Shown here one piece after another: positions 76-5,229 of a stretch of DNA of 6,575 bases. The notes beneath the pieces were generated by a model. The model searched no databases, was not told the origin of the DNA, and saw nothing but the letters and a program-made list of their open reading frames with translations. The stretch's first letter is position 1. The number at the start of each line of letters is the position of its first letter. The DNA comes from a virus. Its lineage: Duplodnaviria; Heunggongvirae; Uroviricota; Caudoviricetes. The position numbers were made by a program, and so were the translations under genes. The DNA lies in IMG/VR virus record IMGVR_UViG_2531839588_000017, positions 1-6,575 of that record; one strand, given 5' to 3'.

Positions 76-99
76 AAAAAACACCCGTGAAGGGTGTTT
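76..99 (-). terminator. Rho-independent terminator downstream of parR
   Basis: Perfect 8-bp stem (plus 79-86 AAACACCC / 92-99 GGGTGTTT, loop GTGAA) which on the minus-strand transcript is followed by a U-run (plus 76-80 A-run). It lies within about 10 nt of the parR stop codon (105-107). Confidence 0.5.
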
Positions 100-104
100 G
101 TAGG

Positions 105-419
105 TTATTCTGGGAAAAACTCCTGAATGTTCCTTTTTAACTGGCTCTTACTGTGACTGTTTTCTGTTGCAGATGTGCCAGTATGCTTGTTTCGGATGTT
201 ATTTCTTGGTGGTATTGCTTCCTCTTCCTGCCATTCAGCCAGCCAGTAAGCAAAGGCGGGATCGCTTTTAATAAGCGCCAGTCCAGCCAGAAATGCCGCG
301 CGTTGCGCGCGGCTGCGTTCGGAGGCTGGCAGGCTGTCGAGATAATTACACGCTTCTCGTTCACTCTTGACGGCTGCTGGCTTCAGATAGAAACTTATCC
401 GTCTGGTTGGAGTCGTCAT
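105..419 (-). CDS. parR: ParR/StbB-like partition adaptor (centromere-binding protein), 104 aa
   Basis: Sub-ORF of the 105..554 track ORF, starting at the ATG at 417-419. An AAGGAG Shine-Dalgarno sits 7 nt upstream and the start is 4 nt after the parM stop. Translation MTTPTRRISFYLKP...LDSLPASERSRAQRAAFLAGLAL resembles the N-terminal DNA-binding region of plasmid R1 ParR as I recall it (LDSIPQGERSRLNRAALTAGLAL). The upstream part of the 149-aa track ORF overlaps parM and is not used. Confidence 0.75.
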   Translation of the reverse strand: MTTPTRRISFYLKPAAVKSEREACNYLDSLPASERSRAQRAAFLAGLALIKSDPAFAYWLAEWQEEEAIPPRNNIRNKHTGTSATENSHSKSQLKRNIQEFFPE

Positions 420-423
420 TGGT

Positions 424-1382
424 TTACTCCTTGTCCATTGCGTACAGCCCATTAACCAGAGCAAACTGTGGCACCCCGTCCGCGATGAAAGTCGCATTAA
501 CTCCGCAGGCTTCGCGGATAGCGGGTGCCACAATCTCCGCCCCGCCACCGACAACCATCACCCGCCCGTAACCCGAAAACCCCGCCAGCGCGCGGATCAC
601 TCGTTGTTTCAGTGTTTCTTCCTTTTCACGAATAACCGCCATCAGGCTGGCGTAATGCGCGTCATTGTGGATGTGCTGGCGCAACCAGGCTTCATCATGG
701 CGATGTTCGATAATGGTATTGGCGATGTGGTGACTGGTGCGCATACCGTTAGTGGCCATCACCGACAGTACGGCATCGGCCATCAGGGAAACGCCTACGT
801 GTGGATCGCAAAACACCTGGCTGATACCTGCCAGTTGTCCCTGAACCTTTGCCACATCCAGCGTGGTTCCGCCTAAATCCACAATCAGCAGGGATTCAAA
901 CGGACTCATGTCAGCCAGTGCTTTAAAACCAGCCGGAATGGATTCAGGCATAACCCGTACGTTACGGATAGTGAATGCTTTTCCGTTCTGGTACGCCACC
1001 GGGCGCATGACGTTGCTTTTTTGCGGTTGATGTTGGCCATGTCCGGCTGTGCGTTTGTGTCGAAATACTCGCTCAGTGGCAGGGTGACAACCACATCCAC
1101 TTCCTGTGGTGTGATGCCTGATTTGACCAGCGCGTGATGAATGGCAATTACATTCACATCGCTGTACTGGTATTGCGTGTCGGTCGTCTGGACAAAGCGA
1201 TCGCTGACCGGATCAAAACCATAGCGCACGCCATCAAGCATGTAGTTCGCGGGCTGCGTGCCACCGAACGGCGCAGACCATTCCGACTTGAAGCTGTTCG
1301 GGCTGATGGCGTTGCGGCGTTCGCCGTTCTCAGTCCATGCCAGCTTGATGTTGGTGGAGCCGTCGTCGATACAAATTTTCAT
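424..1382 (-). pseudogene. parM: ParM/StbA-like actin-type segregation ATPase interrupted by one frameshift (fragments 906..1382 and 424..1008)
   Basis: N-terminal fragment MKICIDDGSTNIKL... carries the phosphate-1 motif DDGST; C-terminal fragment carries phosphate-2 IVDLGGTTLDV and the adenosine motif VVGGGAEIV. Both fragments match R1 ParM from recall. The frame changes right after ...NINRKK at the plus-strand T6 run 1017-1022; one extra base there restores a single ORF of about 319 aa. AAGGA Shine-Dalgarno 9 nt upstream of the ATG at 1382. Confidence 0.75.
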
Positions 1383-1406
1383 GTCGCTTTTCCTTATGTT
1401 GATTAA

Positions 1407-2003
1407 TTAATCGGTTACAGGATTTTTAAATCCCGCTTTTGCCTGTTTTGTGCGCGCTTCATATATCGCGGCGCGTTTTTGCTCATTTACGGGATTTGTG
1501 AGTCCCGTTTCTGTCTGTTTTTTGTTTCCACTGGTCAGGCCACCCCGCAGCAGGTCTGCTTTGCGGTGGGCGCGTTCAGTGGTTTCACTGATTCTCTGTG
1601 CGTGCTCTGCGTCACGGATGGCGCGCAGCATGTCAGAAAGCACGGTAACGGGGGTTTTCATGGTGTTCTGGTCCTGCTGAAGTGTGGATGCCAGACGTGC
1701 GGCGGCTTCGGGGTCTGATGCCCCCAGTTGTTCCAGATAGCTGGCGACCGGGTTATGGCGGATCTCTGTGCTGCTTACGCCGTGATTACGGCTCAGGCGC
1801 TGCCAGAGCTGCGTGATTCGGCTGTCCGGGCGGGTATCCGGTTTGCGTACAATTTCAAATCCCTGCGGTGCAATGATGCTGCCGTCAACGTACAGGCTGC
1901 CGCCCCGTAACAGGTGCTGCATCTGCTGTTCACCGATATGCAGGCCGAGAGATTCAGCAGACTCCCGCCATTCTTTAGCGAGTAATTCGTGGTTATCAGG
2001 CAA
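1407..2003 (-). CDS. Hypothetical protein (198-aa ORF); may be the displaced C-terminus of the gpA-like gene and/or contain a separate small gene
   Basis: Open frame ending 24 nt upstream of parM. The track start is a TTG and the same frame has stops immediately upstream (2004-2144), so the true start is unclear. An internal ATG at 1659-1661 (MKTPVTVLSDMLRAIRDAEH...) could start an 84-aa product. The 3' end overlaps dyad repeats that may be parMR control sites. Confidence 0.4.
   Translation of the reverse strand: MPDNHELLAKEWRESAESLGLHIGEQQMQHLLRGGSLYVDGSIIAPQGFEIVRKPDTRPDSRITQLWQRLSRNHGVSSTEIRHNPVASYLEQLGASDPEAAARLASTLQQDQNTMKTPVTVLSDMLRAIRDAEHAQRISETTERAHRKADLLRGGLTSGNKKQTETGLTNPVNEQKRAAIYEARTKQAKAGFKNPVTD
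1420..1507 (-). promoter_or_regulatory. Candidate parMR promoter/operator or centromere-like sites (two dyad-symmetric 16-bp motifs)
   Basis: GGATTT-N5-TCCCG occurs twice (1420-1435 and 1492-1507), each internally dyad-symmetric (GGATTT/AAATCC; CGGGA/TCCCG), 40-125 bp upstream of the parM start. There is no conventional intergenic region upstream of parM to hold a parC-type site. Confidence 0.25.
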
Positions 2004-2533
2004 AGGCCGCTGCTGTTTGCGGCTCTGTGTCCAGTCTGCATTTCATCACTGCTGTTTTTTGCCTGTTTGTCACGAGCGAACGCATCAGCGCCCGGCGTTC
2101 GTGCCGTTTCAGTGAGCGCACCATTCGTTCACTCAACGCCGTCAGGAGCTGCGGCCACGGTGCTGGCCGTTCTTCCGGCTGTTCTGTCCCGTTGTTGTCG
2201 TTTCCTGTACACGGGGACAGTTATTGCCACGAGTCCAAGGGGCGGCAGGGCCGCCCTGAAGGTCAAAACCATTTTCGCGGGCGCTGTCTTCCGCTTCCGG
2301 TTTACGTCTTACCAGCTTCCAGTTATCCGGATGCGTGCACACCGGGAGATCCCCGATGAGGGCGACCAGATCCCGTAAATCTGTACGCTCTGTTCGCCGT
2401 AATCGTTCAGCCATCGCGAGGTCGTAGGCGGTGCGAATCAGGTAGTCTTGCGGGAACAAGTACGCCCCCTGTTTTCATGTAGGGGCAAAACACCGGCATC
2501 AGCGGCAGCGAGTACCGCATCCATTGCGTCTCT
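2001..2533 (-). pseudogene. C-terminal remnant of the gpA-like replication initiator, split over at least two frames
   Basis: Protein-like translation continues from the core ORF in another frame (2460-2535: ...WMRYSLPLMPVFCPYMKTGGVLVP), then in a third frame (2459 down to about 2240: QDYLIRTAYDLAMAERLRRTERTDLRDLVALIGDLPVCTHPDNWKLVRRKPEAEDSARENGFDL). In-frame stops at 2142-2144 and below interrupt that frame, while a different frame is open from 2238 to 2001. Confidence 0.35.
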
Positions 2534-3469
2534 TCAGCGTTGCGGGCCTTCCGGGTTGCGTGCCATCTGGCTGGCAAGGCGGCGCAGTTCACGCCACACC
2601 TGACGGGAGGGGATGCCAAAGAACTGGAACTGGCGGACCCGGTGAAGGCGCGCCCAGCCGATGGCGCGCTCCACGCTCTCGGCCATTGATTTTCCGGTTT
2701 CGTGGTCAACGCGTGGTTTGCCCGTTTTCGGGTCGATTCCATCCACGGCGCGGCTGTCCAGGTTTTTTCCGATGTAGGTGGCGATGTAGCTGGTTGGCGT
2801 GCCTTTGGAGCCGTCGACGTACTCCACCTTAAAGCGCGGAGTAATATCATTGCCCAGCTCGTGGCGGTCTTCCTGAATGGCAATATCGCGGGTGATGGCC
2901 ACGATGCTGTCGATTTCTTCCGGATGAGCAAAGACCATCATATGCCAGTGCACGGTGCCGTCATGGTGAGGCTCCACCGTGCGGATGCCATACCAGCGCA
3001 GGCCGTCGCGGTTCAGTTTTTTGCGGACCGCCGCAAAAAACGTGTTAACCAGGTAATCGCTGGAGTCGCGCATGGTGGCCCCGTTCCATTTGGGATTCGG
3101 ATGACCGTTCTCTGTTGTGGCGTGGTATTTTGACGGGCAGGTGACAGTCAGAAACACCGCTTTGTCGCCACGGGCTTCGGCCAGAAGTTCCAGTCCCTTC
3201 ATGGTGGCCATCATTTCTGCCTTACGGTGAACCGGGTTACTTACTCCCGCGTAATACACCGTCTCGAGATCAATCGTGAACCCGTCTTCATTTTCCAGCA
3301 TGAAACTTTTCAGGAAATCGCGTGTTTTCTCGCGCTGTGCGCGAAACTCGCTTAACGCGTCCTGGCTCAGATAGGGTGATGTTTTTCTGGAAACCAGACA
3401 GGCGGCGCGGAGTTGTTCTTCTCTCCACTCCAACGTAACAGCCACAGTTTGCGTTTCCACCATCCGCAC
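2534..3469 (-). CDS. Rolling-circle replication initiator, P2 gpA / phiX174 A family (HUH endonuclease core, 311-aa fragment)
   Basis: Contains ...TCPSKYH..., the HUH motif VEPHHDGTVHWHMMVF (about 2942-2950) and the paired catalytic tyrosines SYIATYIGKN (YxxxY, about 2774-2788), followed by ...QVWRELRRL. The track start is a GTG with an in-frame TGA directly upstream (3473-3475), so the ORF looks N-terminally truncated. Confidence 0.75.
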   Translation of the reverse strand: MRMVETQTVAVTLEWREEQLRAACLVSRKTSPYLSQDALSEFRAQREKTRDFLKSFMLENEDGFTIDLETVYYAGVSNPVHRKAEMMATMKGLELLAEARGDKAVFLTVTCPSKYHATTENGHPNPKWNGATMRDSSDYLVNTFFAAVRKKLNRDGLRWYGIRTVEPHHDGTVHWHMMVFAHPEEIDSIVAITRDIAIQEDRHELGNDITPRFKVEYVDGSKGTPTSYIATYIGKNLDSRAVDGIDPKTGKPRVDHETGKSMAESVERAIGWARLHRVRQFQFFGIPSRQVWRELRRLASQMARNPEGPQR

Positions 3470-3678
3470 AGGTCAGGCGAAGGATTGCGCCCGGCAGCAG
3501 TCCGTTCCGGTTCGCTCTTGTTCAGGCTCTAATGTGGGGCATGGTGCAGGGTAAGCATCGGCCAGCATCGTAGCCTTCACTTACATCCATGGTCAGTCGC
3601 CATCTGCCCAACCATCCAGAGTTCAAGGTGCTGCTGAACATGCCGCGTCATGGTGGCCAGCGTCTGTATCTGGTGTTG

Positions 3679-4215
3679 TTAGCTGCGGCAGGTAAAGCAA
3701 ATCGTCCAGGCGTTCGCGCCGGCAAGGGAGCGATAACCCGGTGTCAGCCAGGCGTCGTGCGTCCAGACGTTCGAATATTTTGCGCAGGGTTCCGGGCTAG
3801 CGTTCGCCTGCCAGCTCTTTTTGCCTTTCCGGCGATCGCTTCCTGTTTTTTGCGCAGGAAAGAGAGGTGGCGAATAAGCGGATCGCGCAGATAGGACAGG
3901 CAGTGCCTTTAGTGTGGCAAAGGCACGGGCTACTGGGTCTTGTTCTGTTGCCCGGCGCTTACTGATGATGCTCTGTGCCAGCTTTTCACGCTGTCCGGCT
4001 TCCTCAAGGGATGCCATGAGTTTTTTACCCATGGCGGATTGTGCGAAAAAGGCTTCTTCCTTCGCTTCCTGTTCTTCCTGTGCCCTTTTGTCTGCCTCAA
4101 GGTAGTAACGGATGGCGCGTTGCAGGTCGGTTTCAGTTTCCTGCCTGCGCTCCGTAAACCTGGCCGGATCAATGGCTGGCCGTGGTTCATTCCAGCTCCA
4201 TGCAAACTCGCTCAT
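3679..4215 (-). CDS. Probable N-terminal fragment of the gpA-like replication gene (hypothetical protein if independent)
   Basis: Sub-ORF of the 3679..4242 track ORF, starting at the ATG at 4213-4215, which overlaps the TGA stop of the upstream 129-aa ORF (ATGA). The first 100 or so residues are protein-like (MSEFAWSWNEPRPAIDPARFTERRQETETDLQRAIRYYLEADKRAQEEQEAKEEAFFAQS...); the distal part is low-complexity, suggesting frame loss before the stop at 3679. Assignment to gpA is by position and inference only. Confidence 0.4.
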   Translation of the reverse strand: MSEFAWSWNEPRPAIDPARFTERRQETETDLQRAIRYYLEADKRAQEEQEAKEEAFFAQSAMGKKLMASLEEAGQREKLAQSIISKRRATEQDPVARAFATLKALPVLSARSAYSPPLFPAQKTGSDRRKGKKSWQANASPEPCAKYSNVWTHDAWLTPGYRSLAGANAWTICFTCRS

Positions 4216-4601
4216 GGCTGGTATCCCGTCACGCGCTGCCACTCCTGCGAGAAGATGGCGGAAAGGCGGTTAAATTCAGCGGTGTATTCACTCAGCGAGG
4301 CACACCCGCCAGCAGTGCGATGCGCCAGCATTGCCGCGAATACGGAGGCCGGGGAGTCGTAATACGCCAGCAGTGATTCGCCGTGTGGTGTCAGGCAGTG
4401 CAACGCCAGCCCGTGTGGTGTGAAGTCCACGCGGTAGCAGTCGTCTACTGTGAAATAAAGGGTGTCCGCATTCTCCGGTTTTGTGGTGCGTGCTCTGTTG
4501 TCACGACCACGGATGTAGAGATCAAATAATCCCTGAAGAATGGGAGCCAGACGGGTGTCCTGTGTGCGCACCCATCTTGTGAAGTCATGAGCGTCAATCA
4601 T
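4212..4601 (-). CDS. Hypothetical protein, 129 aa
   Basis: ATG at 4599-4601 with a weak AAAGAG Shine-Dalgarno about 10 nt upstream; stop overlaps the next ORF's ATG (ATGA at 4212-4215). Protein-like composition (MIDAHDFTRWVRTQDTRLAPILQGLFDLYIRGRDN...). No family recognised. Confidence 0.55.
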   Translation of the reverse strand: MIDAHDFTRWVRTQDTRLAPILQGLFDLYIRGRDNRARTTKPENADTLYFTVDDCYRVDFTPHGLALHCLTPHGESLLAYYDSPASVFAAMLAHRTAGGCASLSEYTAEFNRLSAIFSQEWQRVTGYQP

Positions 4602-4950: not shown

Positions 4951-4968
4951 GAGTTGAGAATCTCGGGG
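4951..4968 (-). promoter_or_regulatory. Sense target site C for the antisense RNA (transcript 5'-CCCCGAGAUUCUCAAC-3')
   Basis: Plus-strand GAGTTGAGAATCTCGGGG. Shares GTTGAGAATC(C/T)CGG with the copy at 5127-5143 and is complementary to the B element at 4981-4993. Lies about 50 nt upstream of the 76-aa ORF start. Confidence 0.4.
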
Positions 4969-4976
4969 TGGCGAGA

Positions 4977-5038
4977 CGTACGGGGTTCTCAACACCGGCA
5001 AACGAAGAAACCGGCCCGACCGAAGTCGGCCCCGTACG
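4977..5038 (-). ncRNA. Candidate c4/CI-like antisense immunity RNA (structured core)
   Basis: Minus-strand transcript has a 9-bp closing stem (CGUACGGGG at 5038-5030 pairing with CCCCGUACG at 4985-4977) enclosing a CCGAC-UUCG-GUCGG tetraloop hairpin, a short CCGG/CCGG hairpin, and the element GUUGAGAA, which is complementary to the two flanking AUUCUCAAC sites. No protein-like ORF in the segment. Confidence 0.45.
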
Positions 5039-5086
5039 CCCCACCATAATTCGTGTGCGAAAAAGACGTGGCAATACAGTACGCAC

Positions 5087-5107
5087 AAAAAAACCGCTGG
5101 CGCGGTT
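5087..5107 (-). terminator. Intrinsic terminator between sense site A and the RNA core
   Basis: Minus-strand hairpin AACCGC-GCCA-GCGGTT (plus 5092-5107) followed by a U-run (plus A-run 5087-5093), about 120 nt downstream of the predicted end of the 99-aa gene. Confidence 0.45.
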
Positions 5108-5126
5108 GTGCGCTTCGTTTGTCAGC

Positions 5127-5143
5127 AGGTTGAGAATCCCGGC
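5127..5143 (-). promoter_or_regulatory. Sense target site A for the antisense RNA (transcript 5'-CCGGGAUUCUCAACC-3')
   Basis: Plus-strand AGGTTGAGAATCCCGG; 12 of 13 positions complementary to the B element, same orientation as site C. Confidence 0.4.
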
Positions 5144-5229
5144 ACCCGTTTTATGAGGTGCAGCAGAAATGTAACCTGACTGATTGCGGCATGGCAAGCG
5201 GTTTTTTTGTGTGTGCATGCTCTGATTTC

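Follow-up and report, generated by a model that had tools for sequence, protein, structure and literature searches.

A pair of direct repeats immediately upstream of parM as a candidate parC-like site of P88-type prophages

We found that the DNA immediately upstream of parM in P88-like prophages of E. coli carries two 38-nt direct repeats, which probably form the cis site of a type II (ParMRC) cassette: a compact, parC-like centromere or operator that is overlapped by the upstream ORF. In the loci compared, the repeats co-travel with parMR, and their position, their spacing and their outer GGG/CCC bases are conserved at the level of DNA. ParMRC is a textbook DNA-segregation machine, and its characterized centromeres are intergenic, multi-iteron arrays arranged around a promoter. 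By its proteins, the P88-type system is a clear member of the type II family; what appears to be new is a cis site of only two boxes, overlapped by an upstream ORF and possibly devoid of a promoter of its own. Such a site is not very surprising, as other partition types are known to have centromere-like sites within coding DNA. A literature search found no study of a P88/Xuanwuvirus par site.

The window, by which we mean the whole 6,575-nucleotide stretch that was analyzed, matches P88-like prophages and is a damaged version of one, with all of its genes on the minus strand. Such prophages (Xuanwuvirus, Peduoviridae, P2-like) match it in 1475 of 5426 complete E. coli genomes, and phage P88 matches it too. 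In annotated relatives, a gpA-type replication endonuclease (~940-946 aa) is followed by parM, parR and variable small genes, and the portal and terminase genes lie on the other strand relative to rep-parM-parR. Compared with every relative, the window carries ~90 single-base deletions, outside homopolymers as well as within them, which cluster at 2034-2540 and 3430-3840, with one more at 1014. These deletions split rep into several ORF pieces and frameshift parM, and they reflect either poor sequence quality or a decaying prophage copy. The rep remnant spans 1407-4242 (minus strand); its intact, 946-aa counterpart in a relative matches the Phage_GPA domain of P2-type gpA proteins (PF05840, E=1.7e-131). 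The ORF directly upstream of parM (1407-2003, minus strand) is the C-terminal extension of this replication protein and has no Pfam match of its own. Elsewhere in the window, two minus-strand segments match Rfam families above the gathering score: C4 antisense RNA at 4964-5051 (79 bits) and the Hfq-binding sRNA isrK at 5087-5161 (62 bits). Roughly this region (4981-5141) also has counterparts, at 78% identity and without annotation, on many E. coli plasmids.

The proteins encoded downstream of rep place the cassette in the type II family. The actin-like segregation ATPase gene parM (424-1382, minus strand) is interrupted in the window by the 1-nt deletion near 1014, which leaves ORFs at 906-1382 and 424-1008; its intact homologue matches both the StbA_N family (PF06406, E=3.7e-82) and the ParM C-terminal domain (PF21523, E=1.3e-68). 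The parR gene (105-419, minus strand) begins 5 nt past the parM stop, is intact in the window and encodes a 104-aa ribbon-helix-helix adaptor. The window's own ParR matches the pB171 ParR structure (PDB 2JD3, E=0.002), and a homologue that is 77% identical to it (locus L001) matches PF10784 (E=3.8e-25). Candidates for the third component expected of a type II system, repeated sites upstream of parM, are two 38-nt repeats with 16-bp boxes that are conserved across lineages; there are only two, and their centromere role is one that we infer. The closest plasmid ParM is ~52% identical to the P88-type protein, and single-protein scans of genome and viral contigs for closer intermediates gave only near-identical loci or nothing.

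Both par genes vary among relatives. Across loci L006-L085 and the window (105-419), parR is a mosaic: behind near-identical parM genes, the DNA-binding domain falls into two divergent classes (...PASERSRAQRA... and ...TPEARKSGQRV...), and the C-terminal tails are of several unrelated kinds. Owing to this mosaicism, alignments of DNA to the window begin at 109, 231 or 352. The N-terminal strand of ParR, MTTPTRRISFYLKP, is nearly invariant, with rare variants at residues 2-4 only. ParM variants shortened to 188-261 aa make up protein clusters P0006, P0010 and P0017, with hundreds of member sequences, and parM of TUM9812 is a pseudogene (L096, 7426-8385). These forms indicate that parM is often inactivated in E. 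coli lysogens, and the par system may therefore be decaying in many hosts.

A repeat search recovered the two direct repeats at 1415-1452 and 1487-1524, 79% identical and 72 nt apart. Read on the minus strand, repeat 1 of the putative parC (CAAAAAACAGACAGAAACGGGACTCACAAATCCCGTAA, 1487-1524) lies within the last rep codons, and its 5' end coincides with a homology boundary in locus L046 (see below). It contains box 1 (1491-1506), a 16-bp GGG-N10-CCC dyad that reads GGGACTCACAAATCCC on the minus strand of the window and GGGATTCACAAATCCC in most relatives, and that has equivalents in Hafnia and Plesiomonas. A 34-nt core (1453-1486, minus strand) follows; alignment with relatives and their translations place the usual rep stop, TGA, at 1461-1459 within it. 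Repeat 2 (CACAAAACAGGCAAAAGCGGGATTTAAAAATCCTGTAA, 1415-1452, minus strand) is intergenic in most relatives and contains box 2 (1419-1434), a 16-bp dyad that reads GGGATTTAAAAATCCT on the minus strand of the window and GGGATTTCAGAATCCC in many relatives. The parM leader (1383-1414, minus strand) then holds a conserved TTAATCAA (1399-1406), a ribosome-binding site, AAGGAAAA (1388-1395), and the TAA at 1409-1407. The putative site thus spans ~110 bp, with two repeats, one inverted-repeat box in each, and four half-sites. Motif and variant tables show that, within E. coli, both boxes vary at dyad positions.

The sequence-only reading of this DNA had pointed to two dyad-symmetric copies of GGATTT-N5-TCCCG (1420-1435 and 1492-1507), accompanied by GC(G)TTTT(T)GC motifs. 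Both copies are present, with 0.14 matches expected by chance and none of 200 shuffles reaching the observed count; each repeat indeed holds a dyad, and the GC(G)TTTT(T)GC motifs correspond to the A-rich arms of the two 38-nt repeats. Two further resemblances to plasmid parC were set aside. R1-like 11-bp iterons within the 38-nt repeats amount to a loose, by-eye resemblance, which we do not claim. Phasing of A-tracts at ~10.5 bp, as in the curved parC of R1, was significant against a naive shuffle, but not when the A-runs were kept intact (351/3000).

The same reading had noted that only 24 nt separate the upstream ORF from parM and had concluded that the cassette has no intergenic centromere. 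The gap itself was correctly read (TAA at 1409-1407, parM ATG at 1382-1380, minus strand), and it is a minority allele. Alignment with E. coli Z1323MEC0002 and P88 revealed that the window is one base short of an A6 run, GAGCAAAAAACG: the homopolymer at 1476-1480 is T5 on the plus strand and hence A5 on the coding strand, against six in relatives. It is because of this shorter run that the rep ORF extends to 1407. In relatives, rep ends with ...NEQKTRRDI and a TGA that corresponds to window positions 1461-1459, 76 nt ahead of parM; in the window, this TGA is out of frame. The A5 allele is real, rather than an artefact of the window, since locus L013 shares it in an otherwise intact rep that ends 24 nt ahead of parM.

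We drew on virus, genome and metagenome collections to survey the distance from the rep stop to the parM start in 137 loci of the P88 type. The gap was 76 nt in 120 loci, 24 nt in four (the window, L013, L152 and L142), 65 nt in four, 101 nt in three, 105 nt in two, 75 nt in two, and 153 and 251 nt in one locus each. The rep stop is thus displaced in 17 of the 137 loci, and many such exceptions come from length changes in the two A-runs. The 24-nt gap of L142 arose not from a short A-run but from the loss of one repeat: a 73-bp deletion (L142, 1420-1500), by recombination between the two direct repeats, fused rep to repeat 2 and left one repeat. In the usual layout, box 1 lies in the last ~15 rep codons, the stop falls in the 34-nt core, and box 2 lies in intergenic DNA. 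Accordingly, the absence of an intergenic centromere holds only for the minority allele; normally (120 of 137 loci), a 76-nt gap contains box 2.

These layouts bear on a reading in which the repeats are either a functionless duplication of 72-73 bp or a selected peptide repeat, TG(F/L)TNPV, at the end of the replication protein. The frame of the window does encode a repeated peptide (TGLTNPV / AGFKNPV), and a one-repeat deletion variant exists; however, the ORF stops ahead of repeat 2 in 120 of the 137 loci, so that no peptide repeat is made there. Codon-position diversity among 72 distinct sequences also speaks against it. For the upstream part of rep, diversity was 0.069 at third positions versus 0.010 and 0.024 at positions 1 and 2. 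Over the last ~40 codons, the values for positions 3, 1 and 2 were 0.043/0.054/0.036 and 0.037/0.064/0.020, with no third-position excess. The rep tail is therefore weakly constrained as protein. With the evidence from other lineages given below, we consider duplication or peptide selection very improbable.

Whether the repeats belong to rep or to the par cassette is indicated by loci in which the two are separated. In L046, a shorter rep is followed by an unrelated 155-aa ORF before parM, and the sequence shared with all other loci starts only with the opening bases of repeat 1; the 155-aa ORF consequently acquires the same tail, ...KQTKTGFTNPVNEQKTRSDI and a stop. This extra ORF (L046, 1957-2424) begins MIKYCRQCGRELHY... 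and ends in the same 20-residue tail that rep has elsewhere; its cysteine pairs suggest a zinc ribbon. Only 14 deposited phage records contain the 3' end of rep together with the repeats, and all of them also have this parM; in P2-like phages that lack parMR, the match to the rep C-terminal query was limited to an internal stretch (residues 3-156 of the 300 in the query). Together, these comparisons of deposited sequences show that the repeats travel with parMR and not with the replication gene. They also bear on a suggestion of the sequence-only reading, that the tail of the upstream ORF may not be truly coding. This proved right in part: the last ~40 codons have no third-position excess, the stop shifts in 17 of 137 loci, the tail is fused to the 155-aa ORF in L046, and the frame in which the boxes are read differs between lineages.

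To look beyond the P88 type, we turned to a protein search, which returned ParM relatives at 54-62% identity on contigs that are P2-like prophages with the order gpA-(orf)-parM-parR. At ~62% identity to the P88-type protein, the ParM proteins of a Hafnia prophage (L087) and a Plesiomonas prophage (L090) are preceded by the same two-box layout. In the P88 type, box 1 (GGGATTCACAAATCCC) and box 2 (GGGATTTCAGAATCCC) are spaced 72-73 bp apart, and box 2 starts 52 nt before parM. The Hafnia boxes (GGGATTGAGGAAACCC and GGGTTCATTAAATCCC) are spaced 73 bp apart, with box 2 starting 55 nt before parM; those of Plesiomonas (GGGACAACAAAAACCC and GGGACAACACTAACCC) are spaced 72 bp apart, with box 2 starting 59 nt before parM. 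All three lineages have TTAATCAA and a ribosome-binding site after box 2. A pair of GGG-N10-CCC motifs 68-76 bp apart occurred in no more than 0.4% of whole-locus shuffles, and in each lineage the sole such pair is the one just upstream of parM. The flanks of the boxes are otherwise unalignable between P88, Hafnia and Plesiomonas.

The coding context of the boxes differs among these lineages. The Hafnia upstream ORF encodes a different, 167-aa protein; it spans box 1 and stops within box 2. In Plesiomonas this place is taken by gpA itself, with its stop just past box 1. The reading frame of the boxes differs between lineages, and the tails that they encode are unrelated: peptides at this position are wholly different in Hafnia and Plesiomonas, whereas the boxes persist as DNA together with their spacing, further evidence against a selected peptide or an idle duplication. 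In all three lineages, the 3' end of the upstream ORF takes in box 1, and in the A5 allele and in Hafnia it takes in both boxes; the earlier proposal that the cis site overlaps the preceding ORF is thus supported. The comparison of DNA with protein conservation that had been proposed for the ORF tail gives the same picture, with the protein weakly constrained and the boxes conserved as DNA across lineages.

The dyads might instead act as RNA or DNA hairpins, either as sense stem-loops that process or stabilize the rep-parMR mRNA or as intrinsic terminators on the opposite strand that keep antisense transcription out of rep. In the P88 lineage, the majority-allele dyad, ACGGGATT-N4-AATCCCGT, folds at -10.7 kcal/mol (z about -3.8), and both boxes form 8-bp stems. 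A T-rich run follows each hairpin on the antisense strand, so that a terminator scan flags them as terminator-like, and a C-to-T variant of box 2 retains a G-U pair. In Hafnia and Plesiomonas, however, the inner dyad and the hairpin are lost: these boxes keep GGG/CCC and the 72-73 bp spacing, but shuffled sequences fold as well as they do (z -0.2 to -1.5). Stem pairs are also broken, with no compensating change, by the common alleles GGGACT (box 1) and CAGGATT (L046). The sense strand has no U-run after the hairpins; their likeness to terminators is confined to the antisense strand of the P88 lineage, and there is no obvious antisense transcription to terminate 3.6 kb past the end of the portal operon. 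A search of Rfam at the repeats gave no match. A hairpin function for the dyads seems improbable. What is conserved in the lineages compared is double-stranded DNA information, namely the outer GGG/CCC bases together with the length, spacing and position of the boxes; this is the pattern expected of a protein-binding site rather than of an RNA structure or a peptide.

If a protein binds the repeats, it need not be ParR: a phage regulator or host factor might do so, or the repeats might serve as an accessory replication or recombination site at the rep-par junction. The location at a module junction fits such a role, and GGG-N10-CCC is a low-information motif. The expectation that ParR alleles and boxes would covary also failed: both classes of ParR DNA-binding domain share the N-terminal strand and occur with the same mix of box variants, a lack of covariation that another binding protein would accommodate. 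Against this, the repeats accompany parMR and are not seen with other gpA genes, and they occupy the same position as the known (R1/R100) or apparent arrays in every other ParMR lineage that we examined. We therefore regard these alternatives as improbable. The cross-lineage pattern weakens each of these three alternatives.

A lineage comparison supports assignment of the repeats to ParR in another respect: the type of repeat upstream of parM tracks the N-terminal strand of ParR. ParR proteins with the strand TRR(I/V)SFYL (P88, Hafnia and Plesiomonas) go with the two-box layout. Those with NRKISFYL (Serratia and Enterobacter) go with a long inverted repeat starting AAAACGGGAAC; this clade has a different layout, with only AAAACGGGAAC in common. 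Those with RRKITFYL, RRKIQFYI or RRTIAFKL, in other lineages including R1, go with other iterons. Among ParMR lineages at 50-54% identity, some have clear 11-bp repeat arrays and others carry ATCTAT-type repeats. Two metagenome loci are examples of the iteron type. In L170, TAGTTCTCAAA iterons form two clusters around a near-consensus promoter, TTGTTA-16-TATAAT; in L183, ATTGCATGTAC is present in five or six tandem copies in one array. Like the P88 type, these loci have the same gene pair with a site upstream of parM, and in L170 two clusters flank a core; they differ in having about five to seven tandem 11-bp iterons, whereas the P88 type is without an 11-bp tandem array.

The best-studied relative is plasmid R1, whose parC consists of ten 11-bp, A/C-rich direct iterons within 159 bp, in two sets that flank a 39-bp core; in R1, the two iteron clusters are loaded with ParR separately, and the protein folds parC into a U (PMC2241845). 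As a control, we recovered the published R1/R100 parC layout just upstream of parM in R100. The P88-type system resembles R1/R100 in having a homologous ParM (~46% identity by tblastn to IncF-type plasmid stbA/parM), a ParR of the same Pfam family that is 32% identical overall and 43.5% identical over residues 1-62 (the ParM families, too, are the same), and repeated DNA immediately upstream of parM, in two sets around a short core (34 nt in the P88 type, 39 bp in R1). It differs in the make-up of the site: R1 has ten iterons, the par promoter within the core, and a true intergenic region, whereas the P88 type has two 38-nt repeats (~110 bp), no consensus promoter that we could detect, and the rep stop codon in the core. 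A search of the P88 type for two R1-type sets of five 11-bp iterons found no 11-bp tandem array, whereas the R100 control and L170 show them. The P88 site would thus keep the plan of two repeat sets around a core next to parM, apparently pared down to two units, with the upstream gene running into it.

Our favored reading, that the repeats are the cis site of the parMR cassette, predicts the following mechanism. By analogy with R1, dimers of the ribbon-helix-helix protein ParR would bind the half-sites CGGGA and TCCCG of each 16-bp box. The two loaded repeats would lie 72-73 bp, or about seven helical turns, apart and hence on one face of the DNA, where they could form an adaptor complex that captures the ends of ParM filaments, as the two iteron clusters of R1 parC do. 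As the cassette sits directly behind the phage replication gene, any upstream ORF would read into the site until it meets a stop; this read-through would normally end at the TGA in the core and, in the A5 allele of the window, at the TAA 24 nt before parM. Several findings count against this reading, namely the natural one-repeat variant L142, the different layout in Serratia/Enterobacter, the lack of covariation between ParR alleles and box variants, the variation at dyad positions and the truncation of parM. Moreover, with only two boxes (four half-sites), compared with ten iterons in R1 (PMC2241845) and about five to seven in the iteron-type relatives, the site may be an operator rather than a full centromere.

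As a different location for the centromere, the sequence-only reading had offered the dyad-rich segment at 1-60. This proposal did not hold up: the segment is present in only 4 of ~90 parMR loci and belongs to a variable cargo region downstream of the parR terminator, a terminator-like hairpin with a T-run that a terminator scan placed directly after parR (79-99, minus strand). The 1-60 region differs between otherwise near-identical prophages, and it more likely belongs to the neighboring cargo genes than forms the cognate centromere. The AT-rich DNA at 1-62 holds a perfect 8-bp inverted repeat, GATAGATA-N6-TATCTATC, and its ATCTAT motif resembles repeats upstream of a distant parMR locus (L099, 420-550); the resemblance may be a coincidence in AT-rich DNA.

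We also asked how parMR is transcribed. A scan of the upstream regions of P88, Hafnia and Plesiomonas found no sigma-70-like promoter between rep and parM; this negative is weak, because the same scan misses the known R100/R1 promoter, although it finds that of L170. No sense-strand terminator was found between rep and parM in the two-box lineages. In light of these two results, parMR may be co-transcribed with the early (replication) operon of the phage, a suggestion that the scans favor weakly.

Taken together, these features allow a more speculative proposal, which we put forward as unlikely on present evidence: P88-type phages might carry a minimal, promoterless type II centromere (two boxes, ~110 bp) in the end of the replication gene, make ParMR together with the replication proteins, and use it to position or segregate replicating or episomal circles. 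If true, this would imply a plasmid-like phase for a normally integrating phage, rather than mere plasmid baggage. A complete P88-like genome with integrase, cox, rep, parM, parR and structural genes has been deposited from an E. coli isolate as a 34.5-kb circular "plasmid" (NZ_CP148288.1, L101). The record may point to an extrachromosomal state, or to spontaneous induction while the isolate was being sequenced; it is compatible with a plasmid-like phase and does not prove one. The CGP3 prophage of Corynebacterium offers an analogy only: like the P88 type, it is an integrated prophage with an actin-like protein and a DNA-binding adaptor (AlpAC/alpS), and that system acts in the replication and transport of viral DNA rather than in plasmid inheritance (PMC4446434, PMC5539076). 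CGP3 differs in its protein families and its host phylum.

For annotation, our results suggest that the last ~20-40 codons of P88-type rep genes are best viewed as read-through into a cis element, and that the length of this coding tail varies with homopolymer slippage. A two-box site lying over a coding region would help to define the minimal DNA required by a ParR adaptor. Finally, as the prophage is found in 1475 of 5426 complete E. coli genomes, it would offer a practical way to study why a P2-like phage that integrates has retained a plasmid partition system.
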